Below, piece after piece: positions 52,391 through 64,000 of a stretch of DNA of 64,000 bases. A model generated the notes under the pieces. That model ran no database searches. It saw only the letters and a program-made list of their open reading frames with translations, and had not been told where the DNA came from. Where the stretch lies: NCBI RefSeq assembly GCF_056712565.1, contig NZ_CM160072.1. One strand, 5' to 3'. Position numbers and translations under genes: made by a program. Numbering within the stretch: position 1 is the stretch's first letter; the number at the start of each line of letters is the position of its first letter.

Positions 52391-53428
52391 ATGTTTTCCG
52401 CATTGCGCCACCGTACCGCTGCCCTGGCGCTCGGCGTATGCTTTATTCTCCCCGTACACGCCTCGTCACCTAAACCTGGCGATTTTGCTAATACCCAGGC
52501 ACGACATATTGCTACTTTCTTTCCGGGACGCATGACCGGAACTCCTGCAGAAATGTTATCTGCCGATTATATTCGCCAACAGTTTCAGCAAATGGGTTAT
52601 CGCAGTGATGTTCGGACATTTAATAGTCGGTATATTTATACCGCCCGCGATAATCGCAAGAGCTGGCATAACGTGACGGGAAGTACGGTGATTGCCGCTC
52701 ATGAAGGCAAAGCGCCGCAGCAGATCATCATTATGGCGCATCTGGATACTTACGCCCCGCTGAGCGATGCTGACGCCGATGCCAATCTCGGCGGGCTAAC
52801 GTTACAAGGAATGGATGATAACGCCGCAGGTTTAGGTGTCATGCTGGAACTGGCTGAACACCTGAAAAATACGCCTACCGAGTATGGTATTCGATTTGTG
52901 GCGACCAGCGGCGAAGAGGAAGGAAAATTAGGCGCTGAGAATTTACTCAAGCGGATGAGTGACACCGAAAAGAAAAATACGCTGCTGGTGATTAATCTCG
53001 ATAACTTAATTGTTGGCGATAAGCTGTATTTCAACAGTGGCGTAAACACACCTGAAGCAGTAAGGAAATTAACGCGCGACCGGGCGCTGGCAATTGCCCG
53101 CAGCCATGGAATTGCCGCCACCACAAATCCAGGTTTGAATAAAAACTATCCGAAAGGCACCGGGTGTTGTAATGACGCAGAAATATTCGACAAAGCCGGT
53201 ATTGCTGTACTTTCGGTGGAAGCGACTAACTGGAATCTTGGCAATAAGGATGGTTATCAGCAACGCGCAAAAACAGCCGCATTCCCTGCGGGAAATAGCT
53301 GGCATGACGTAAGACTGGATAATCAACAGCATATTGATAAGGCACTTCCTGGAAGAATAGAACGTCGCTGCCGTGATGTTATGCGGATAATGCTACCGTT
53401 GGTGAAGGAGCTGGCGAAGGCATCTTAA
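52391..53428 (+). CDS. iap: Alkaline phosphatase isozyme conversion aminopeptidase
   Basis: 345-aa ORF with signal peptide and M28-type peptidase motifs. Confidence 0.93.
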   Translation: MFSALRHRTAALALGVCFILPVHASSPKPGDFANTQARHIATFFPGRMTGTPAEMLSADYIRQQFQQMGYRSDVRTFNSRYIYTARDNRKSWHNVTGSTVIAAHEGKAPQQIIIMAHLDTYAPLSDADADANLGGLTLQGMDDNAAGLGVMLELAEHLKNTPTEYGIRFVATSGEEEGKLGAENLLKRMSDTEKKNTLLVINLDNLIVGDKLYFNSGVNTPEAVRKLTRDRALAIARSHGIAATTNPGLNKNYPKGTGCCNDAEIFDKAGIAVLSVEATNWNLGNKDGYQQRAKTAAFPAGNSWHDVRLDNQQHIDKALPGRIERRCRDVMRIMLPLVKELAKAS

Positions 53429-53527
53429 TGGGTTTGAAATGATTACTCCCTTGCCTGCAGGAAATCAATGCCACCAGAAACAGAGTATAAAAAAGGGTGC
53501 AGGAGACCAAACCATCACAATTCAGTA

Positions 53528-53546
53528 CGCGGGGTTTTACCCCGCG
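53528..53546. terminator. GC-rich stem-loop at the 3' end of the hok-like gene
   Basis: CGCGGGG-TTTTA-CCCCGCG (7-bp GC stem) 6 nt beyond the hok-like stop on the minus strand and ~100 nt downstream of iap on the plus strand; no U-tract in either orientation. Confidence 0.55.
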
Positions 53547-53552
53547 TGGTGG

Positions 53553-53705
53553 CTACTTCTTCGATTCGTAAGCGAGAACTGCCTTAAACTCCATACCACG
53601 TTCTCTGATACTCAACTCACACAACGAGTCGCCTACCATCAACGTGAATCCCAGTACTGTACAACACAGTACGATGATTGCCACAAGGGCATATTTTGTC
53701 AGCAT
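53553..53705 (-). CDS. Hok/Gef-family type I toxin (HokE-like small membrane peptide)
   Basis: 50-codon [53 protein letters not shown]: hydrophobic N-terminal helix, conserved Cys in SLCEL, C-terminal AYE motif; GGAGG Shine-Dalgarno 7 nt upstream; GC-rich hairpin just 3' of the stop. Close by eye to recalled chromosomal HokE. Confidence 0.8.
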
Positions 53706-53912
53706 GTCTTGCCTCCCTGCAAAGAAGAGACTAACATCCGAATTGCTTAGGTTCGAACGTAGGCCTCAGGTTGATAGAAATATCGCCTGGGGCTTTTGTC
53801 CATCTGGAACCTCGCGAATGCTTAACGCCAGACAGCCTCAAGCACCCAATGCCATTCTATACCTGTTAATTCTCCCTGCGACGTTCTCGTTTAAATGCCG
53901 GAATGCTGCTCG

Positions 53913-53953
53913 CAAAATAAAAACGCCCCCATCATTTCTGACAGAGGCGTTTA
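53913..53953 (-). terminator. Candidate rho-independent terminator of cysJIH
   Basis: Minus strand AAACGCC...GGCGTTT stem followed by TTTATTTT, 17 nt downstream of the cysH stop. Confidence 0.6.
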
Positions 53954-53969
53954 ATTTATCCGGCAATAT

Positions 53970-54704
53970 TTACCCTTCGTGTAATCCACATTCCCTTTTT
54001 AAGCCAAAGAAACGCGTTTCTTCTTCCGCCATGCCGGGTTCCCATTTACGGGTTGTATGGGTATCGCCCACCGATAAATATCCTTCATCCCATAATGGGT
54101 GATATTTCAGGCCATGTTTTTGCAGGTACTGATAAATAGTTCGGTTATCCCAGTCGATAATCGGCAGCACTTTAAATACGCCACGCTGAATTGCCAGCAC
54201 CGGTAAATTGGCGCGGCTGCCGGATTGTTCACGGCGCAGGCCAGCAAACCAGGTTTGCACATTCAGTTCTTTCAGCGCCCGGTTCATCGGTTCGACTTTG
54301 TTGATGTCATTGTACTTTTCAATGCCTTCAACGCCCTGCTCCCACAGTTTGCCGTAGCGTGCTTCCTGCCAGGCGGCGCTTTCGGTAGCACGGTACACTT
54401 TCAGGTTGAGCTTGAGTTTATCCGTTAACTCGTCAATAAAGCGGTAGGTTTCCGGGAACAGATAGCCGGTATCGGTGAGGATCACTGGAATATCCGGGCG
54501 AATCTGATTCACCAGATGCAGACTCACCGCCGCCTGAATGCCAAAGCTGGAAGAAAGTACATATTCACCGGGCAGATTATCCAGCGCCCAGGCTACGCGG
54601 CCTTCAGCGTCCAGTTTTTCCAGTTGGGCGTTAGTTTCCGCCAGCGCCAGAATCCGGTCTACCTTTGGCAGTTCGTTCAGGGCGTTTAGATCGAGTTTGG
54701 ACAT
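53970..54704 (-). CDS. cysH: Phosphoadenosine phosphosulfate (PAPS) reductase
   Basis: Start at [12 protein letters not shown] (244 aa); the ORF track extends 51 codons upstream. C-terminal catalytic ECGLH motif. Confidence 0.94.
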
Positions 54705-54777: not shown

Positions 54778-56490
54778 TTAATCCCACAAATCGCGCGCCG
54801 GATCGAGCACCGGGCGAATGATGCCCGCACGCACCGTAAAGTCGCCGAAGCCTTCACCCACTTCGCGCTCTTTCGCCCAGCGCCCTATCAGTTCATCAAG
54901 CGACGCCAGGATTTCCGGCTCGGTGATGTTTTCTTTATACATCCGTGGGATACGTGTCCCAATGCGGTTGCCGCCAAGATGCAGGTTGTAGCGACCCGGC
55001 GCTTTCCCCACCAGACCCACTTCCGCCAGCATCGCGCGACCACAACCGTTCGGGCAGCCTGTTACACGCATCACGATATGCTCATCGCTGACACCATGTT
55101 TCGCCATTAAATTATCGATGTTGTCGATAAAAGACGGCAGGAAACGCTCCGCTTCCGCCATCGCCAGCGGGCAAGTCGGGAATGACACGCAGGCCATTGA
55201 GTTTTCACGCTGCGGCGTGACGGCATTCATTAACCCGCTTTCTTTGGCGATCTTCTCGATCTTCGCTTTCTCGCTTTCCGGCACGCCGGCGATGATCAGA
55301 TTCTGGTTCGCCGTAATGCGGAAATCACCTTTGTGGATCTTCGCGATCTCCAGCAAGCCGGTTTTCAGCGGACGTCCCGGATAATCAAGAATGCGACCAT
55401 TTTCGATAAACAGCGTCAGGTGCCAGTTATCATCAATGCCCTTAACCCAGCCAATACGATCGCCGCGTCCGGTAAACTCATACGGGCGAATCGGCTCGAA
55501 TTTGATCCCCGCGCGACGTTCGACTTCCGCTTTAAATGTCTCAACCCCCACCCGCTCCAGCGTGTATTTGGTTTTGGCATTTTTACGATCGGTACGATTA
55601 CCCCAGTCGCGCTGAGTCGTCACAACGGCTTCCGCTACCGCCAGCGTATGTTCCAGCGGTAAATAACCAAACTCACTCGCCGTGCGGGCGTAGGTTTTCT
55701 TGTTGCCGTGTTCAATGGAAAGCCCACCGCCCACCAGCAGGTTAAAGCCCACCAGCTTGCCGTTTTCGGCGATCGCCACGAAGTTCATGTCGTTGGCGTG
55801 CAGATCGATATCGTTCTGCGGCGGGATCACTACCGTGGTTTTGAACTTACGCGGCAGGTAGGTCTGACCAAGGATCGGCTCTTCATCAGTAGTGGCGACT
55901 TTTTCCTGATCGAGCCAGATCTCCGCATACGCGCGGGTACGAGGCAGCAGATGTTCAGAAATTTTCTTCGCCCATTCATATGCTTCCGCGTGCAGCTGCG
56001 ACTCGTAAGGGTTCGAGGTGCAGAGTACGTTACGGTTCATGTCGTTGGCGGTCGCCAGCGCATCAAGACCGACCGAGTGCAGCATCTGGTGCACCGGTTT
56101 GACGTTCTTTTTCAGAATGCCGTGGAACTGAAACGTCTGGCGGTTGGTCAGGCGAATGCTGCCATAGATGGTGTTTTCACCGGCAAATTTGTCGATCGCC
56201 TGCCACTGTTTAGTGGTAATCACCCCACCCGGCAGACGACAGCGAAGCAGCATCGCGTGACGTGGTTCCAGCTTCTGTTCAGCACGTTCGGCGCGGATGT
56301 CGCGGTCATCCTGCTGATACATGCCGTGGAAGCGGATCAGCAGGAAGTTATCACCCTTAAAGCCGCCGGTCAGACCGTCGTTTAAATCTTCCGCAATGGT
56401 GCCGCGCAGGTAGTTGCTTTCAAGCTTCATGCGCTCGGCGTCTGTCAGTTTTCCTTCGACCACTAAAGGTCCTGGATGTTTTTCGCTCAT
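54778..56490 (-). CDS. cysI: Sulfite reductase hemoprotein beta subunit
   Basis: 570-aa ORF with siroheme/4Fe-4S Cys motifs ([17 protein letters not shown]). Confidence 0.95.
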
Positions 56491-58289
56491 TAGTAGACAT
56501 CTCGCTGATAACGGCGCTCTACGCGCAGCTCACTTAAAAATTCATCCGCCGCTTCGGTGTCCATGCCACCAAATTCGGCAATCACTTCCAGAAGTGCCTG
56601 CTCAACGTCTTTCGCCATGCGATTAGCGTCGCCGCAGACATAAATGTGGGCACCGTCATTGATCCAGCGCCACAGCTCTGCGCCCTGTTCGCGCAGTTTG
56701 TCTTGTACGTAAATTTTTTCTTTTTGATCGCGCGACCAGGCGAGATCGATGCGCGTCAGCACGCCTTCTTTGACGTAACGCTGCCATTCCACCTGGTAGA
56801 GGAAATCTTCCGTAAAGTGTGGGTTGCCAAAGAATAGCCAGTTTTTACCCGGCGCTTCGTCGGCAGCACGCTGCTGCATAAAGGCACGGAACGGCGCGAT
56901 GCCGGTGCCAGGGCCAATCATGATCACCGGGGTTTCCGGATTGGTTGGCAGGCGGAAGTTGTCGTTATGTTCGATAAAGACGCGGACTTCACCCTCTTCT
57001 TCCACACGATCCGCGAGGAAGCTGGAGGCACCACCGGCACGGGCGCGGCCTTCCACGTCGTAACGCACCACACCAACGGTAACGTGCACTTCGTTCTCGA
57101 CTTCCGCCTGCGAGGAGGCGATGGAATACAGGCGCGGGGTCAGCGGGCGCAGCAGATTAATCAGCGCTTCGGCATCCAGTTGCGCCGGAGAGAAACGCAC
57201 CATGTCGACAATCGGCGTCGTCGCGGCGTAATGCTGTAACTTCGCTTTATCGCCCACCAGCGGCAGCAGCGTTTCGCTGCGGGTAAGCGTGGCATAGTTC
57301 TCAACAATGTTGGCGGTGTTGACGGTCAGTTCGAAGTGCCACTGTAGCGCTTCGTTCAGAGGCAACGTTTTGCCCTCGACGGTGACAGGTTCATCGCCTT
57401 TCAGCCACAGCAGTTCGACAAGTTCTTTCACCAGTGCCGGATCGTTCTGATACCAGACGCCCAACGCGTCACCCGGCTGGTAACGCAGGCCAGAGTCACC
57501 TAAGTCAATTTCAATGTGACGAACGTCTTTTTCAGAGTTACGCCCGGTAATTTTCTGGTTAACCGAAAGGCTGGCCGCCAGCGGCGCGTCTTTGCTATAC
57601 GGGCTGGTGTGGATTTCATTTACCGTGCCAGTAGCGACGGATTGCGAAGGTGCCGCGACAGGCGCACGCGATTTAAGCGCATCAACCACGCGGGCGCGCC
57701 ACTCGCTGGCAGCAGCCTGGTATTCAACGTCGGCATCGACACGGTCGAGCAGGCGTTCACCGCCCAGTTCCGCCAGCTTACTGTCAAAATCTTTCCCGGA
57801 CTGGCAGAAAAATTCATAAGAGCTATCGCCGAGGCTAAACACGGCAAACGCGGTGTTTTCCAGCTTTGGCGCTTTTTTGGAGAACAGGAACTTATGCAGC
57901 GCGACGGCTTCTTCCGGCGGTTCCCCTTCCCCTTGCGTTGACGTCACCACGATAAGCAGTTTTTCGCTGGCGATTTGTTTGAATTTATAGTCACCCGCGT
58001 TCACCAGCTTAACGTTCAGTTTTGCCGCTAATAAATCATCGCGTAATGCTTCAGCAACCCGGCGCGCATTGCCGGTTTGCGAGGCGGAGATAATAGTTAT
58101 ACCCGGCATTTCTGCGGCGGGCGCTGGCGTCGCTGCAAGCGCAGCAGGCTGCTGGTTGAGCACGCCCCAGAAATAGCCAGAAACCCAGGCAAGCTGGGTA
58201 GGAGTTAAATCGGTCGTGGCCGCCTGAAGGCGTGCCAGTTGCTCCGGGTTCAACGGAAGCAACGCGGAAGGTGGGACCTGTGTCGTCAT
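56490..58289 (-). CDS. cysJ: Sulfite reductase flavoprotein alpha subunit
   Basis: 599-aa ORF; flavodoxin-like FMN domain plus FAD/NADPH reductase domain. Confidence 0.95.
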
Positions 58290-58604
58290 GCGTCGTTATG
58301 TTCCAGTAAGCAAAGCTGTTTCTGCGCCCTGTCAGCGCCCATAAAACAGAAGAGAAGGTAAGGTTAACGGGGTGAACGGTGTGGATTAAAGACGGGATAG
58401 CGATAACTAATAACCAAATCGACTAACCTGTTTTAGCAATAGTCTTTAACAACAAAATAGATTAACCAACCCAATGAAAAACAAATGAATATTGCCCATC
58501 AATAAGATAAATCAGCGATTTTGCGCAACAAAGTCGTTTTAGATAATGCGAAAAAACAGCCTTTCCGGTACTCTACGGCGGTTTTATCGTCATGTAGAGA
58601 AATT

Positions 58605-58970
58605 ATGATGTCCACCACGTTATTTAAAGATTTCACCTTCGAAGCCGCTCACCGCTTGCCGCACGTCCCACAAGGGCATAAATGTGGTCGCCTGCACGGG
58701 CATTCCTTTATGGTGCGACTGGAAATTACCGGGGAAGTCGATCCGCATACGGGCTGGATTATCGATTTCGCTGAACTGAAAGCGGCGTTTAAACCAACTT
58801 ATGAGCGCCTCGATCACCATTATCTCAATGATATTCCTGGTCTGGAAAACCCAACCAGCGAAGTTTTAGCAAAATGGATTTGGGATCAGGTTAAACCCGT
58901 TGTGCCGCTGTTAAGTGCGGTGATGGTAAAAGAAACCTGCACCGCAGGTTGTATCTATCGCGGCGAATGA
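58605..58970 (+). CDS. queD: 6-carboxy-5,6,7,8-tetrahydropterin synthase
   Basis: Start at [18 protein letters not shown] (121 aa); conserved CGRLHGHS motif; divergent from cysJ. Confidence 0.92.
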
Positions 58971-59047
58971 TAAGAGTGTGTCGGCGGTCAATTTCCCTTA
59001 AGTAACGCTATGTTAGGGTGTTGTGTTCTGGATATCTGGGGCATGAC

Positions 59048-60319
59048 ATGGAAGACGACTGCGACATTATTATTATTGGTGCCGGTATTGCTGGCACCGC
59101 TTGCGCGTTACGCTGCGCGCGAGCGGGTTTATCCGTTCTGTTACTGGAACGAGCGGAGATTCCCGGCAGCAAAAATCTTTCCGGCGGGCGGCTATACACC
59201 CATGCGCTCGCGGAACTCCTCCCGCAATTTCACCTGACCGCGCCCCTTGAACGACGCATCACTCACGAAAGTCTTTCTCTGTTAACGCCAGATGGCGCAA
59301 CGACGTTTTCCAGCTTACAGCCCGGCGGTGAATCCTGGAGTGTATTACGTGCACGATTCGATCCGTGGCTGGTTGCCGAAGCCGAAAAAGAAGGTGTCGA
59401 ATGCATCCCCGGTGCGACGGTAGATGCACTGTATGAAGAAAACGGCAGGGTGTGTGGTGTCATTTGTGGTGACGATATTCTTCGCGCCCGTTATGTGGTG
59501 CTGGCAGAAGGTGCCAACAGCGTCCTCGCGGAACGCCACGGGTTAGTGACTCGTCCTGCTGGCGAAGCGATGGCATTGGGGATCAAAGAAGTGCTGACGC
59601 TGGAACCATCCGCTATTGAAGAACGTTTTCATCTGGAGAATAACGAAGGCGCAGCGTTGTTGTTCAGCGGCGGGATCTGTGATGACTTACCCGGCGGCGC
59701 ATTTCTTTATACTAATCAACAAACGCTCTCGTTAGGGATTGTTTGCCCGCTCTCCTCCCTTACGCAAAGTCGTGTTCCGGCAAGCGAGCTGCTGGCTCGC
59801 TTTAAAACGCATCCGGCAGTGCGCCCGCTTATCAAAAACACGGAATCACTGGAGTATGGTGCGCATCTGGTGCCAGAAGGTGGCCTGCGCAGTATGCCGG
59901 TGCAATACGCCGGTAACGGCTGGCTGCTGGTGGGCGATGCGTTGCGCAGTTGCGTCAATACCGGAATTTCCGTGCGCGGTATGGATATGGCGCTAACTGG
60001 CGCGCAGGCGGCGGCACAAACGCTGATAAGCGCCTGCCAGCACCGCGAGCCGCAAAATCTGTTTCCGCTTTATCATCACAACGTAGAGCGCAGCCTGCTG
60101 TGGGATGTTCTACAGCGTTATCAGCATGTTCCGGCGCTTTTGCAACGCCCTGGCTGGTATCGGGTGTGGTCTGGGTTAATGCAGGATATTTCCCGTGATT
60201 TATGGGATCAGGGGAATACACCTGTTCCACCGCTGCGCCAGTTGCTCTGGCGTCATTTACGTCGTCACGGCTTGTGGCATCTGACGGGCGATGTTATCAA
60301 GAGTCTGCGATGTCTGTAG
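59048..60319 (+). CDS. ygcN: FAD-dependent oxidoreductase (FixC-like)
   Basis: Start at ATG MEDDCDIIIIGAGIAG (423 aa); the ORF-track start is a GTG 10 codons upstream. Confidence 0.9.
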   Translation: MEDDCDIIIIGAGIAGTACALRCARAGLSVLLLERAEIPGSKNLSGGRLYTHALAELLPQFHLTAPLERRITHESLSLLTPDGATTFSSLQPGGESWSVLRARFDPWLVAEAEKEGVECIPGATVDALYEENGRVCGVICGDDILRARYVVLAEGANSVLAERHGLVTRPAGEAMALGIKEVLTLEPSAIEERFHLENNEGAALLFSGGICDDLPGGAFLYTNQQTLSLGIVCPLSSLTQSRVPASELLARFKTHPAVRPLIKNTESLEYGAHLVPEGGLRSMPVQYAGNGWLLVGDALRSCVNTGISVRGMDMALTGAQAAAQTLISACQHREPQNLFPLYHHNVERSLLWDVLQRYQHVPALLQRPGWYRVWSGLMQDISRDLWDQGNTPVPPLRQLLWRHLRRHGLWHLTGDVIKSLRCL

Positions 60320-60570
60320 CCCGTAATCTCTGGCGCGCTGCCGATGCGCCGCACATTGTTCCAGCTGACTCCGTTGAGCGCCAGACGGCACAACGGTTGA
60401 TTAACGCCTGTCCAGCAGGTCTTTTTTCGCTCACACCTGAAGGTGGCTTACGTGTTGATTATCACGGCTGCCTGGAGTGTGGCACCTGCCGTTTGCTGTG
60501 CGACGAATCAACACTACAACAGTGGCGCTATCCGCCTTCCGGATTCGGCATCACCTACCGCTTTGGATAA
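60310..60570 (+). CDS. ygcO: Ferredoxin-like protein (FixX-like)
   Basis: Start at MSVARNLW (86 aa), overlapping the ygcN end; Cys cluster CLECGTC. Confidence 0.85.
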   Translation: MSVARNLWRAADAPHIVPADSVERQTAQRLINACPAGLFSLTPEGGLRVDYHGCLECGTCRLLCDESTLQQWRYPPSGFGITYRFG

Positions 60571-60586
60571 ATAATAAGGATAATTT

Positions 60587-61162
60587 ATGCCCCTCTTACA
60601 CCTGCTCCGCCAGAATCCGGTGATTGCTGCCGTTAAAGATAATGCCAGCCTGCAACTGGCAATCGACTCTGAATGCCAGTTTATTTCCGTGTTGTACGGC
60701 AATATCTGCACCATTAGTAATATCGTTAAAAAGATTAAGAACGCCGGGAAATATGCTTTTATTCATGTTGATTTGCTGGAAGGCGCGTCAAATAAAGAAG
60801 TGGTGATTCAGTTTTTGAAACTGGTAACCGAGGCGGACGGAATTATCAGTACCAAAGCCTCAATGCTGAAAGCAGCAAGAGCGGAAGGTTTTTTCTGTAT
60901 TCATCGACTGTTTATTGTTGATTCGATTTCGTTTCACAACATTGATAAGCAAGTTGCGCAATCGAATCCGGATTGTATTGAGATCCTGCCAGGCTGCATG
61001 CCTAAAGTGCTGGGCTGGGTGACGGAGAAAATCCGCCAACCGCTGATTGCTGGCGGGCTGGTGTGCGATGAAGAAGATGCGCGTAATGCGATTAACGCGG
61101 GTGTTGTGGCGCTTTCCACCACGAATACTGGGGTCTGGACGTTAGCGAAAAAATTGCTTTGA
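60587..61162 (+). CDS. ygcP: GlpP-like glycerol-3-phosphate-responsive antiterminator family protein
   Basis: 191-aa ORF matching recalled YgcP. Confidence 0.88.
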   Translation: MPLLHLLRQNPVIAAVKDNASLQLAIDSECQFISVLYGNICTISNIVKKIKNAGKYAFIHVDLLEGASNKEVVIQFLKLVTEADGIISTKASMLKAARAEGFFCIHRLFIVDSISFHNIDKQVAQSNPDCIEILPGCMPKVLGWVTEKIRQPLIAGGLVCDEEDARNAINAGVVALSTTNTGVWTLAKKLL

Positions 61163-61196
61163 CGGGATAATCGTAACAAGTTGAATTTGGTGTGAT

Positions 61197-61266
61197 TTGT
61201 AGGCTGCACGCCACATCCGACATTCAGCGCCTGATGCGACGCTTGACGCGTCTTATCAGGCCTACA
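61197..61266. repeat. REP elements between convergent ygcP and ygcQ
   Basis: TGTAGGCTGCACGCCACATCCGACAT and GCCTGATGCGACGCTTGACGCGTCTTATCAGGCCTACA. Confidence 0.8.
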
Positions 61267-61309
61267 AGTCCCCAGCCCAGAACCATCGGCAGGATCATCC
61301 GGCAGCACG

Positions 61310-62170
61310 TTATTGGCAATCTGCGTGAATGTTTGTCACCAGTGCCTCCAGCACCACTTTCCAGTCATCAACCACGCCAACATCTGCCTGTGAAAATACC
61401 GCTGCACTGGCGTCATGATTAATCGCCACCACAAACTTGCTATTGCGTACGCCCGCCATTAACGCTGCTGCGCCGGAAGCGCCAACAACAATACACACCT
61501 CAGGTGCCAGCAGATGTCCGGAAATACCAATCACTTTTTCGGCATCAACGCCACCGTTCATCACTCGTGCCCGACTGTAGCCCACTTCGGCTCCCATCTT
61601 TTCTGCCAGCATAGCGATTTCCTGGTTATCTGCCTCTCCGCCCTGCCCCACCACCAGCACCCGTCTGGCCTCAGCTAATGGGTCACGGGTAACATTTTTC
61701 AGGTTTTCGACGCTGATAAGCCAGTCTGGAAGCGCGCCGGGAACAATGTTCAGTTGCTGCATCCCAGAGGGCAACGTGGCGTTTTTATCTGCTCCCGCCT
61801 GACGTGCCAGCGAAAGGCATAGCGGGCGTTTTTCTGTTTGCAGCGTCGCCGTCAACGCATTTCCCCAGTGGGATTTGCGCACGCTTACGGTTGGAATATC
61901 TAACGAAGTCACCTGGCAGATGCTTGCACCATGTAAACGCCAGGCCAGCCGGGTCGACAGTTCATCGCCAAACGCGCCCGGAGGAAAAAGGACAACCTCC
62001 GCAGGCGTTCGTTGCCACTGTTCCACCAGCGCATCCAGCACCTGTTCCGCAACCATCGGCTGTGGTTCTATTTGCCAATGCGTTAGTGTGCTGCCGCTGA
62101 AATCCTGCGCCGCCAGCCAGCCCGCCATTGCGGCATGTTCCTGATTTATTGTCACAATTGCGATATTCAT
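61310..62170 (-). CDS. ygcQ: Electron transfer flavoprotein alpha-subunit-like protein (FixB-like)
   Basis: Start at MNIAIVTINQ (286 aa); the ORF track extends 11 codons upstream. Confidence 0.88.
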   Translation of the reverse strand: MNIAIVTINQEHAAMAGWLAAQDFSGSTLTHWQIEPQPMVAEQVLDALVEQWQRTPAEVVLFPPGAFGDELSTRLAWRLHGASICQVTSLDIPTVSVRKSHWGNALTATLQTEKRPLCLSLARQAGADKNATLPSGMQQLNIVPGALPDWLISVENLKNVTRDPLAEARRVLVVGQGGEADNQEIAMLAEKMGAEVGYSRARVMNGGVDAEKVIGISGHLLAPEVCIVVGASGAAALMAGVRNSKFVVAINHDASAAVFSQADVGVVDDWKVVLEALVTNIHADCQ

Positions 62171-62946
62171 GGCTGCATCCTTTGGCGTAAATAGTCCTGC
62201 CATAGCTTTTGCGCTTTTTCTGCAACCGTTTGCCCATCAATCAGCGCCGCTCTGCGTCGTTGCTCTGGCCTTGCCAGTTGCAGGCACTGTATCGCTGGCG
62301 CTTCCGCGGCAACAGTTTCGCGGGTAATCTCCGCTTTCCCCGCCGCCATTCGCTGGCGCATTCCCGGTACTGGCAAGGCCACTTCACCACACTGACGCAC
62401 GGCAATCACCGCAGGCAAGCGAACCCGGCAACAGCGCACCCCATGTTCAGTACGCTGTTCGAGGGTGATAAACGGTGCGTCGAGAGTAAAGCGCTCCACC
62501 TGGGTGAAGCAGGGCCAGACCAGCATTTCCGCCAGCAAAAATGGCGTTTGCCCATTCTGCCCTTCGCTGCTTTGGCAGCCAGTAATTATCAGATCCAGCG
62601 GATTCTGGTACTGCCATTCGGCAATATGGAGAGCGACAAATTCCGGCGCAAAGCGCAGATCTGCCGCCGTCTCCAGCAATACAGCTTCCTCAAACCCAAG
62701 TGCCATGAGATAGCGCAGCCAGTGCAACGCCCGTTCATCCCCCATGCTCAACGCGGTTAAAGACATCGGCGTACCGTTTTTTCTCTGCGCCAACAGCAGC
62801 GCGGCGGCAGCCTGTTCATCGGCACCGAGTAAACTTCGCAGAAGCGAAACATCCGGTCCGATATTACCCTGAGCCGCCGCCAGCCACTCTTTTTCCGCCA
62901 GCATCCCGGCATCCGGTTCGGCTTTAAACGCTAACAGTATGTTCAT
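62167..62946 (-). CDS. ygcR: Electron transfer flavoprotein beta-subunit-like protein (FixA-like)
   Basis: Start at MNILLAFKAEPD (259 aa); overlaps ygcQ start. Confidence 0.88.
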   Translation of the reverse strand: MNILLAFKAEPDAGMLAEKEWLAAAQGNIGPDVSLLRSLLGADEQAAAALLLAQRKNGTPMSLTALSMGDERALHWLRYLMALGFEEAVLLETAADLRFAPEFVALHIAEWQYQNPLDLIITGCQSSEGQNGQTPFLLAEMLVWPCFTQVERFTLDAPFITLEQRTEHGVRCCRVRLPAVIAVRQCGEVALPVPGMRQRMAAGKAEITRETVAAEAPAIQCLQLARPEQRRRAALIDGQTVAEKAQKLWQDYLRQRMQP

Positions 62947-64000
62947 TCGCACCTCCTGCATTTCCCGCCGCCACCAGCGGGAGTGCTTTGGTTTCTGGTG
63001 CCCATAGCCAGGTCACAACAAAACCAACCAACAACACTGCCGCCAGGAGCAATAAGGTGGCTTGCATTCCCCACTGTGCCAGCACCCACGGCAGCAGGCC
63101 AGTACTTACCGCCGCCCCCAACCGACTCATGGCGGTGGCAAAACCGACGCCCAGCGAGCGAATGTCAGTAGGAAAACTTTCCGCAGGCAAAATGCCCACC
63201 AGATTACTGACTGCCGAAATGGTGGTGCTGAAGAGAACAAAAAGCAGCAGCGTTAATGAACTGCCGGAAGGCAAACAGGCCATTACTACCAGCGTTGCCG
63301 TTAGCAGCAAAAAACTTCCCAGTAAAAATCTGCGATGCGCTAACAAGTGGGTCAACACTAACCCTAATAACGCGCCAACAATTAACAACGCATTAAGCAT
63401 CAGGCTGGCAGTCAGCGCATCTTCCAGACCAATAGTTTGGGCGATGGTCGGCAGCCAGGTATAAATCACAAACCATGGGATTACGAGGCAGACAAAGAAG
63501 ACGCTGTTAAACGCCGTGCGCCGCCAGTAGCGCGAAGAGAACAAGGTTTTGATGTGTTTATGGGTCGCCGTTGCCACTTCATCGCCCAGTAAAACATGGG
63601 GACCAAAGTAGCGATGCACGATAGCGTGAGCTTCTGCAAAACGCCCCTGGCGCAGTAGCCAGCGTGGCGATTCTGGCGTTCCCCAGCGTAATAACGTAAT
63701 CAACAACGCGGGCAGAGCTGCCGATGCCAGCAGCCAGCGCCAGGCCTCCGGGCTTTCGCTAATAAAGTGATGTCCGGCAATACTTGCCAACACATAGCCT
63801 ACGGTCCACACCACGCTGAACGCGCCCAGCAAAACACCGCGATGGCGGCGCGGAGAAAATTCAGCCAGCAAAGTGTGACCTACTGAGTAATCGCCTCCCA
63901 GACCAATGCCGATCAAAATGCGCAATCCAATAAGATGCTCTGGCGTGGTGGCAAAAAATTGCAAGAACGAAGCGAGCGTAATCAGCATAAAACTGAAGGT
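62924..64000 (-). CDS. ygcS: MFS sugar-porter-family transporter, 3' portion (N-terminus beyond window end)
   Basis: Open frame continues to the window edge; polytopic membrane sequence with MFS signature (GLGGDYSVG); recalled YgcS is ~445 aa. Confidence 0.85.
   Translation of the reverse strand, partial: TFSFMLITLASFLQFFATTPEHLIGLRILIGIGLGGDYSVGHTLLAEFSPRRHRGVLLGAFSVVWTVGYVLASIAGHHFISESPEAWRWLLASAALPALLITLLRWGTPESPRWLLRQGRFAEAHAIVHRYFGPHVLLGDEVATATHKHIKTLFSSRYWRRTAFNSVFFVCLVIPWFVIYTWLPTIAQTIGLEDALTASLMLNALLIVGALLGLVLTHLLAHRRFLLGSFLLLTATLVVMACLPSGSSLTLLLFVLFSTTISAVSNLVGILPAESFPTDIRSLGVGFATAMSRLGAAVSTGLLPWVLAQWGMQATLLLLAAVLLVGFVVTWLWAPETKALPLVAAGNAGGANEHTVSV

Follow-up and report, generated by a model that had tools for sequence, protein, structure and literature searches.

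The genes ygcNOPQR occupy positions 58605-62946 of a 64,000-nucleotide stretch of DNA (NCBI RefSeq assembly GCF_056712565.1, contig NZ_CM160072.1), which is hereafter called the window. After comparing these genes with their neighbors and homologues, we read ygcNOPQR(S) as the half, inside the window, of an ~11-kb catabolic locus that comprises the units ygcNOP, ygcW-ygcU-ygcS-ygcR-ygcQ and yqcE-ygcE. We consider it probable that this locus is CRP-dependent and antiterminated by YgcP, a protein of the GlpP family, and that electrons from the FAD-linked oxidase YgcU pass through the electron transfer flavoprotein (ETF) YgcQR and the FixC/FixX-like pair YgcNO to quinone. The regulatory model taken alone likewise appears probable to us; our confidence in the electron path is lower, and our confidence in any substrate is very low.

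Two leader RNAs with intrinsic terminators

The regulatory elements lie ~3 kb beyond the window, in the 318-bp intergenic region between ygcW and yqcE (L001 21166-21483). L001 is an identical Escherichia coli record whose RefSeq annotation was converted by the relation that the window coordinate equals the L001 coordinate plus 45499. Each transcript starts with a leader of ~75 nt, and both leaders contain a strong intrinsic terminator.

L001 21190-21265 (window-equivalent 66689-66764, outside the window), minus strand: ygcW leader element, upstream of ygcW
L001 21386-21459 (window-equivalent 66885-66958, outside the window), divergent from the ygcW leader: yqcE leader element

The ygcW terminator is a 19-bp stem followed by U9 and ends 35 nt before the ATG, and that of yqcE is an 11+5-bp stem followed by U8. 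Overlapping the terminator in both leaders is a conserved hairpin, AGUUACY-AGAGA-N3-4-GAGAAA-RGUAACU; the ygcW leader reads CC-AGUUACC-AGAGAUAAUGAGAAA-GGUAACU-UCCC..., and the yqcE leader reads GC-AAUUACU-AGAGACCUGAGAAA-AGUAAUC-CACC.... In this alternative fold, the first 6-7 nt of the leader pair with the start of the terminator 5′ arm, and a loop of ~15 nt bears two GAGA motifs, the second of which, GAGA(AA), is also the base of the terminator. The fold energies of the terminators are -31 kcal/mol for ygcW and -21 kcal/mol for yqcE (z = -6.7 and -4.4). The minimum-energy fold of the nascent leader is predicted to be the antiterminator hairpin, at only -6.7 and -1.4 kcal/mol, respectively. 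The terminator is far more stable than this hairpin and therefore should win if unaided.

Published Term-seq data from K-12 grown in lysogeny broth (LB) place one 3′ end 38 nt before the ygcW ATG (40,640 reads, Rho score 0.50, intrinsic score 15.8) and another 36 nt before the yqcE ATG (1,557 reads, Rho score 0.61, intrinsic score 11.4) (PMC7815308). Both were classed as not Rho-dependent, and the Term-seq table lists no regulatory element at either (PMC7815308).

The first-pass annotation of this DNA had taken the antiterminator gene to suggest substrate-specific RNA-level control and had proposed a search for the RNA structure upstream of ygcN. Concrete RNA elements do exist; their expected location was wrong, since they stand upstream of ygcW and yqcE, outside the window. 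Neither a simple scan nor a covariance model revealed a terminator/antiterminator upstream of ygcN: with default filters the model had no match in the whole 64-kb window, with filters off its best match in window 56000-64000 reached 7 bits, and among the homologous loci the leader element preceded ygcN in 0 of 40.

Being conserved 5′ leaders whose terminator and antiterminator folds exclude each other, the two RNAs have the generic architecture of transcriptional riboswitches. The two leaders might accordingly bind a metabolite themselves, or be the targets of another RNA-binding factor, and sense the inducer without YgcP. We judge this very improbable. All that is conserved outside the terminator is a single hairpin of 6-7 bp whose loop has ~15 nt, and no known ligand pocket is that simple; the terminator exceeds the free antiterminator in stability by 15-25 kcal/mol; the element strictly co-occurs with a GlpP-family gene; and no Rfam 15 family matched the leaders at its gathering score. 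The best Rfam match was rliE (26 bits vs 90), which aligns the terminator alone and was rejected as a chance match. A miniature inverted-repeat transposable element or another mobile repeat was likewise rejected as the source of the inverted leader copies: the copies are orthologously distinct across genera, and in Firmicutes they are single and oriented with the gene.

Distribution and covariation of the element

A genome scan with YgcP yielded 64 loci, onto which the cluster proteins were then mapped. The element precedes ygcW in 52 of 58 loci, yqcE in 49 of 55, and ygcU only where ygcU heads its operon; for ygcN, ygcP, ygcE, ygcS, ygcR and queD, the count was 0 loci each. It recurs, always upstream of core genes, in Enterobacterales, Vibrio, Listeria, Bacillus and Clostridium. 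The element strictly co-occurs with loci that encode a YgcP-type protein and is found once per catabolic transcription unit, in two phyla.

Two species that did not contribute to the covariance model gave two elements each, at 68 and 57 bits in Vibrio hannami and at 63 and 57 bits in Clostridium sediminicola, and these precede genes for a short-chain dehydrogenase/reductase (SDR), an FGGY kinase or an FAD-linked oxidase. When metagenomes were scanned for the exact pattern, it turned up 85 times in 80 loci, 6 of these occurrences being at contig edges. Among the 79 assessable occurrences, 69 stand directly upstream of ygcW, ygcU or yqcE homologues; all but one of the remaining 10 lack a T-run and resemble chance matches in coding sequence.

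Covariation was tested on an alignment of 65 sequences with 500 shuffles and slid controls. The antiterminator stem is 90.5% paired, compared with at most 55% in the slid controls, and 3 of its 7 pairs show compensatory changes: G-C/A-U (15 sequences), A-U/G-C (4) and U-A/C-G (14). None of the 500 shuffles reached the observed covariation. For the terminator, pairing amounts to 90.6%, and 7 pairs show compensatory changes.

YgcP and its likeness to GlpP

YgcP matches PF04309 (G3P_antiterm) over the full profile length (E = 1.4e-62), and its PDB homologues are 3KTS (Listeria monocytogenes GlpP, E = 1e-27) and 1VKF. Identity with cluster-linked homologues from Leminorella, Pantoea, Vibrio, Clostridium, Listeria and Bacillus amounts to 55-74%, whereas identity with genuine GlpP is only 27-29%, and both GlpP and YgcP are encoded in Listeria grandensis and L. 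booriae. Because of this gap and this coexistence, sequence comparison assigns YgcP to a separate subfamily and not to the orthologues of GlpP. It may differ from GlpP in the RNA that it recognizes as well as in its ligand, and the database name "glycerol-3-phosphate responsive" is an extrapolation. The residues invariant across the two subfamilies are K55, D62, GIIS 85-88, R107, DS 112-113 and GL 157-158, and PF04309 proteins share a conserved GG(L/I) and an S/T-rich motif. We take the fold to be of the TIM-barrel type and these motifs to be typical of phosphate-binding enzymes. In Serratia microhaemolytica (L045), a lone ygcP homologue (70% identical) has no cluster gene or leader element within ~10 kb on each side.

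A genuine GlpP target offers a direct comparison. In Bacillus subtilis, the 5′ untranslated region (UTR) of glpD gives foreign promoters GlpP- and glycerol-dependent control (PMC9604022). According to the supplement of that work, this region reads ...ACGGUC-CUGAGAUGAGGAGA-GACCACAGC..., with a GGUC/GACC stem, and the 3′ arm of its terminator reads ...GUGGUCUC-U5 (PMC9604022). The loop contains GAGA-N4-GAGA, and the second GAGA is placed at the base of the terminator. The glpF and glpD leaders of the Priestia megaterium glpP-glpF-glpK-glpD locus are alike in layout (UGGUU-GGAGAAUCGGAGA-GACCA and GUGAC-GGAGAAUAGGAGAUC-CAC), and the ygc covariance model scores the P. megaterium glpD leader at 19.8 bits only. 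Analogous leaders accompany distant YgcP paralogues in Lachnoclostridium and Faecalibacterium. As judged from these comparisons, the ygc leaders resemble GlpP targets in design and not in close sequence. The Listeria glpP loci L066 and L068 adjoin mutSL, apart from glp genes, and no comparable leader was found there. The GlpP-family mentions for Acetobacterium woodii and Pseudoclostridium thermosuccinogenes concern ordinary glycerol loci and were set aside.

The ygc system shares with the B. subtilis GlpP system (glpD, glpFK and glpTQ) a PF04309 regulator, an intrinsic terminator in the 5′ UTR of the regulated operons, and tandem GAGA motifs 3-4 nt apart in a short alternative hairpin that overlaps the terminator 5′ arm. 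In both, a phosphorylated inducer can come from a kinase encoded in the regulon (YgcE in the ygc system, GlpK in B. subtilis), and catabolite control is laid on top, by CRP and by CcpA, respectively. The differences are that the ygc stem AGUUACY/RGUAACU is distinct and nearly invariant and that its regulon comprises an SDR, an FAD-linked oxidase, an FGGY kinase, transporters and ETF proteins in place of glpFK, glpD and glpTQ. Neither orthology with GlpP nor control of glycerol genes was found; the regulated genes are ygcW/U/S/R/Q and yqcE/ygcE. Unlike that of the GlpP system, the host is Gram-negative, and its glycerol genes are under the GlpR repressor. Antitermination of the BglG/SacY type, which acts at a ribonucleic antiterminator (RAT), is similar in that a short 5′ hairpin stabilized by protein excludes the terminator by overlapping its 5′ arm, but it relies on PRD/CAT domains instead of PF04309, on control by phosphotransferase system (PTS) phosphorylation, which is missing here, and on another RNA motif. 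The ygc system is best filed as GlpP-type antitermination, in a distinct subfamily with a Gram-negative host, a different pathway and a coupling to a Fix-like ETF chain.

The leaders could instead be constitutive attenuators or stable small RNAs from the 5′ UTR that have nothing to do with YgcP, and YgcP could serve the pathway as a TIM-barrel enzyme. With 40,640 Term-seq reads, the RNA of the ygcW leader is as plentiful as a stable small RNA would be; the presumed TIM-barrel-type fold with motifs like those of phosphate-binding enzymes suits this explanation, and RNA binding by YgcP is itself a proposal. We nevertheless hold it to be unlikely: the layout of a tandem-GAGA loop and terminator is common to the ygc leaders and the GlpP-antiterminated glpD leader, the element is confined to YgcP-encoding loci with one copy per catabolic transcription unit in two phyla, and the compensatory changes of the alternative stem would be purposeless in a plain attenuator.

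Promoters and proposed catabolite control

Both leaders are preceded by extended -10 boxes, TGcTAAAAA (ygcW) and TGtTATTTC (yqcE). The ygcW promoter carries the 16-mer TGTGATTACGATCACA, which is the measured CRP site, and the yqcE promoter carries a predicted CRP-like 16-mer, CGTGATTACTCTCACA. As read from the sequence, the -10 hexamer begins 21 nt past the 16-mer at both promoters, a spacing compatible with class II geometry. The CRP site between ygcW and yqcE, flanked by the two divergent promoters, was bound with a Kd of 1.7 nM in Footprint-seq (PMC12871828), it had been predicted earlier by PhyloScan, and a published list of Crp-activated genes includes yqcE-ygcE (PMC8085971). A TATACT/TATAAT box lies 6-7 nt ahead of the AGUUAC-type arm in Listeria, Bacillus and Clostridium. 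From these sequences, we infer that transcription starts at or just before the AGUUAC arm. The leader element therefore appears to be the extreme 5′ end of the RNA, given the promoter geometry and the Firmicute -10 boxes.

The ygcNOP unit differs from the two leader-bearing operons. The 77-bp gap between queD and ygcN is without a CRP site, a terminator or a YgcP-type RNA element. It possibly carries a weak promoter, to judge from the following candidate:

58987-59014, plus strand: candidate ygcNOP promoter (GTCAAT, 16-nt spacer, TATGTT), read from the sequence

A -10-like box (TATGTT, TATAAT or TATACT) stands at the equivalent position in other genera. In the K-12 Term-seq data, a Rho-dependent 3′ end falls within the first ~90 nt of ygcN, at about window 59142 (coordinate 2892741, Rho score 3.67) (PMC7815308). 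This 3′ end inside ygcN suggests that ygcNOP transcripts in LB often end early.

Gene content and conservation of the locus

Window positions 57500-64000 are 100% identical to several complete E. coli genomes, for example, ATCC 11775 and ZJ3920. The features are as follows, with the gene coordinates of the RefSeq annotation:

58608-58970, plus strand: queD, 6-carboxytetrahydropterin synthase, the left boundary and outside the system (also by synteny in loci L002-L030)
59048-60319, plus strand: ygcN, FixC/EtfC-like FAD-dependent ETF:quinone oxidoreductase (RefSeq, Pfam, NCBIfam, PDB)
60310-60570, plus strand: ygcO, FixX-like ferredoxin, with a 10-nt overlap with the ygcN stop (RefSeq, NCBIfam, Pfam)
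60587-61162, plus strand: ygcP, GlpP-family (PF04309) proposed RNA-binding antiterminator, last of ygcNOP (RefSeq, Pfam, PDB)
61179-61262, convergent ygcP/ygcQ gap: repeat resembling a repetitive extragenic palindrome/bacterial interspersed mosaic element (REP/BIME); Rfam naRNA4 at 39 bits, below the gathering score of 59.5
61310-62170, minus strand: ygcQ, ETF alpha/FixB-like, last of the ygcW-ygcU-ygcS-ygcR-ygcQ operon (RefSeq, Pfam)
62167-62946, minus strand: ygcR, ETF beta/FixA-like, overlapping ygcQ and ygcS (RefSeq, Pfam ETF)
62924-64000 (window end; full gene to window-equivalent 64333), minus strand: ygcS, sugar-porter-type transporter of the major facilitator superfamily (MFS) (Pfam Sugar_tr, E = 1e-51)

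According to the same annotation, the minus-strand operon starts beyond the window with ygcW (SDR) and ygcU (FAD-linked oxidase), and the divergent operon yqcE (MFS)-ygcE (FGGY kinase) is followed by queE. The whole cluster sits between queD and queE from Escherichia through Buttiauxella (L002-L030). Transcription of the two converging operons probably terminates at the REP/BIME-like repeat, which is not peculiar to this system. Base composition gave no clear sign of recent transfer.

As a description of the locus, the first-pass annotation holds. It had described queD, ygcN, ygcO and ygcP, the convergent ygcQ and ygcR and the MFS gene ygcS with the content, order and coordinates that RefSeq gives, and every family it named (FixC-, FixX-, GlpP- and FixB/FixA-like, and MFS) is upheld by Pfam, NCBIfam and PDB comparisons. 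Its statement that the cluster is conserved in E. coli agrees with a locus match in 5425 of 5426 complete genomes, at least 80% of the 6.5-kb query being covered in 5091. It had also called the cluster functionally uncharacterized, and full-text literature searched by the ygc/yqc names and the GlpP family contains no defined substrate, pathway or regulator.

What that annotation presented as a Fix-like module proves to be only part of the system. The conserved core is ygcP, ygcU, ygcW, yqcE and ygcE, of which ygcP alone is inside the window, and the ETF/Fix genes are accessory. The core is found throughout Enterobacterales and, with a variable transporter, in Listeria sensu lato, Bacillus sp. 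DNRA2 and Thalassobacillus, where a betaine/carnitine/choline-type (BCCT) transporter takes the place of the MFS protein. Genes of the ygcQR and ygcNO types are present in part of the lineages only.

Several observations were made in passing. Many genera conserve a G+C-rich hairpin directly after the ygcU stop. The E. coli copy (L001 18793-18814, minus strand, window-equivalent 64292-64313, outside the window) is covered by the 5′ end of ygcS as annotated, and the transporter domain recognized by Pfam does not begin before residue 53 of YgcS. The true start of ygcS may lie downstream of the annotated one, and the hairpin may have an intercistronic role, as attenuator or stabilizer. In Serratia (L042 4338-8804) and Pantoea (L049 4461-8837), the ygcS homologue lies apart from ygcWU and is linked to genes for a formaldehyde-activating-enzyme-like protein, an aldo-keto reductase and an aldehyde dehydrogenase; a LysR-type gene adjoins ygcP. 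Farther upstream in the window, the gene order is iap, a Hok/Gef toxin gene, cysH, with no CRISPR-Cas genes annotated between them (L001 6892-9205, window-equivalent 52391-54704). In K-12, this position presumably holds a type I-E CRISPR-Cas system.

The ETF/Fix module and the proposed electron path

By sequence, YgcR, YgcQ, YgcN and YgcO make up a full set of ETF beta, ETF alpha, FixC-like and FixX-like proteins. YgcN contains the Pfam domains DAO and ETFQO_UQ-bd and scores 380 bits against the FixC-type subfamily of NCBIfam, below the cut-off; its best solved homologue, matched over the full length, is 7KOE_C, the FixC protein of the menaquinone-reducing EtfABCX complex of Thermotoga maritima (E = 5e-56). 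YgcO has a CP...CxxCxxCxxxC pattern, with 83 bits for NCBIfam FixX (below cut-off) and a weak Pfam Fer4_9 match. YgcQ (286 aa) matches Pfam ETF_alpha and ETF, the N-terminal ETF domain weakly (27.7 bits), and aligns with solved ETF alpha chains, including LctC, at E = 1e-21 to 1e-23. YgcR matches Pfam ETF (E = 1.6e-14); YgcO and YgcR match their families only below curated cut-offs.

YgcRQNO is the same four-protein set as FixABCX/EtfABCX, of which fixABCX and ydiQRST are the E. coli paralogues. Unlike FixABCX, it is split over two convergent operons rather than encoded as one unit, its sequences evolve fast, and its partner is an FAD-linked oxidase instead of an acyl-CoA dehydrogenase or nitrogenase. 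This partner, YgcU, belongs to the FAD_binding_4/FAD-oxidase_C family, as do LctD of the Acetobacterium woodii LctBCD complex and other ETF-dependent D-2-hydroxyacid dehydrogenases; it aligns with LctD of the Ldh-EtfAB complex at E = 4e-22. YgcU differs from LctD in that its closest solved relative is alkyl-dihydroxyacetone phosphate (alkyl-DHAP) synthase, in the FAD domain only (E = 2e-40), and the E. coli locus differs from LctBCD in that a transporter gene separates ygcU from the ETF genes. The uninterrupted order ygcU-etfB-etfA is seen in Bacillus, Vibrio, Clostridium and many Firmicute-type (gut) metagenomic contigs. Some Firmicutes have an additional, more Lct-like oxidase/ETF set besides YgcU. 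We propose the path from YgcU to the ETF on the basis of the etfBA-ygcU adjacency, the homology of YgcU with LctD and the match of YgcN to the FixC protein of EtfABCX.

All genes are under purifying selection, and the ETF module is much less constrained than the core. The ratio of nonsynonymous to synonymous substitution rates (dN/dS) is 0.01-0.04 for ygcP, ygcU and ygcW (0.01-0.04 for ygcP alone) and 0.07-0.35 for ygcN, ygcO, ygcQ and ygcR (ygcN 0.07-0.17, ygcQ 0.12-0.35, ygcR 0.13-0.27). Within Escherichia, amino acid identity is 87-95% for ygcN/O/Q/R vs 98-100% for ygcP and ygcU. The weaker constraint fits an accessory role of the ETF module.

The same figures could mean that the locus is decaying or cryptic in E. 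coli, that it is losing its ETF/Fix genes and that it has no present role in the species. In line with such decay, the dN/dS of ygcN/O/Q/R exceeds the 0.01-0.04 of ygcP/U/W, the clusters of several genera lack the ETF genes, transcription in LB meets Rho-dependent termination inside ygcN and tight termination in the leaders, and the searched literature contains no growth phenotype. However, no dN/dS comes close to 1, no reading frame is disrupted in this strain, 5091 of 5426 genomes retain at least 80% of the region, few genes of the neighborhood are as constrained as those of the core, and the CRP site is of high affinity. We find present-day decay improbable.

Clues to the substrate

The relatives of the core enzymes give partial hints. 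YgcE is closest to LsrK (E = 1e-29), followed by glycerol kinases, with XylB as another sub-threshold relative; YgcW is closest to KduD/2-deoxy-D-gluconate 3-dehydrogenase (E = 7e-58; NCBIfam KduD 348 bits vs a cut-off of 369); and YgcU is closest to alkyl-DHAP synthase (FAD domain only) and GlcD/LctD. A substrate search in NCBIfam and PDB returned sub-threshold relatives only (KduD, XylB/LsrK and GlcD/alkyl-DHAP synthase). The LsrK/GlpK-like kinase, the GlpP-like sensor and the flavoenzyme similar to alkyl-DHAP synthase and GlcD together suggest, at the level of sequence likeness, a small polyol or ketol with a phosphorylated intermediate.

BCCT genes lie inside the clusters of Bacillus sp. 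DNRA2, Thalassobacillus, Vibrio hannami and metagenomic Firmicute contigs, and the proteins score below every specific NCBIfam model:

L057 14695-16305: BCCT gene
L059 4375-5946: BCCT gene
L069 9715-11286: BCCT gene
metagenomic L096, L112 and L125: BCCT genes

With the BCCT carriers added to the GlpK/LsrK-like kinase, the GlpP-like sensor and the alkyl-DHAP-synthase-like flavoenzyme, a substituted glycerol, perhaps zwitterionic, would be compatible with the clues, and this is speculation. A bolder version, which we advance tentatively and with more doubt than belief, is an undescribed non-glycerol pathway, maybe for a zwitterionic or quaternary-ammonium polyol or a substituted glycerol, that is shared horizontally by Firmicutes, Vibrio and Enterobacterales; its key oxidation would be performed by the flavoenzyme-ETF-quinone chain, and YgcP would represent a second GlpP-type ligand and RNA class, the first in a Gram-negative host.

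Earlier phenotypes are few. Deletion of ygcR is reported to affect mazEF-linked death after DNA damage, for which it was called a "death gene"; no mechanism was given, and the protein was described there as being of unknown function (PMC2646832). Deletion of ygcU in enterohemorrhagic E. coli left D-serine repression and signaling unaffected. The "ygcO" of a PTS-Ntr review is a misspelling of ycgO and was discarded.

Putative mechanism and its meaning

Overall, we provide a putative mechanism for the ygc locus. YgcP would be expressed from ygcNOP, a unit apart from the two operons and free of a leader terminator. Carrying a phosphorylated intermediate as its ligand, it would bind the GAGA hairpin and block the terminator, so that polymerase reads into both operons. 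The ligand would most likely be the product of the FGGY kinase YgcE, comparable to GlpK and glycerol-3-phosphate, and CRP-cAMP would supply catabolite control. The substrate may enter via YqcE and YgcS (or the BCCT carriers in some lineages), be phosphorylated by YgcE and be processed by the KduD-like SDR YgcW. An intermediate of the pathway would then be oxidized by the FAD-linked YgcU, whose electrons would flow to the ETF YgcQR, on to YgcNO and into the quinone pool.

A number of points weigh against this proposal. Binding of RNA and of a ligand by YgcP is a prediction, and the transcription start sites are deduced from promoter geometry. The antiterminator stem is short and nearly invariant, its covariation stems from few events (ygcW-type vs yqcE-type; Listeria/Bacillus vs the rest), and its 5′ arm has the same sequence as the terminator 3′ arm, so the covariation is partly shared with the terminator. 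As for the electron path, ygcN/O/Q/R evolve 5-15 times faster than the core genes, and in Serratia (L042-44), Pantoea/Erwinia and Listeria no ETF or FixCX gene stands within 10 kb of the cluster, so that the ETF route is not an obligatory one. As for the substrate, the likeness of YgcU to alkyl-DHAP synthase is limited to the FAD domain, and BCCT transporters are ill-suited to a simple sugar or polyol. Still, none of the competing explanations accounts for the combination of the GlpP-like RNA design, the covariation of the alternative stem and the strict linkage to PF04309.

The result establishes no new principle. It allows ten adjacent E. coli genes without known function to be read as one regulated system with testable parts, namely, two leader RNAs, a candidate RNA-binding protein, a CRP site and a proposed electron path, and read-through of leader-reporter fusions would be a direct and cheap screening route to the inducer and the substrate. 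If the proposal is true, YgcU would be the partner dehydrogenase for one of the three Fix-like ETF systems of E. coli, and GlpP-type antitermination, so far a matter of Gram-positive glycerol genes, would gain a second specificity class and reach Proteobacteria.

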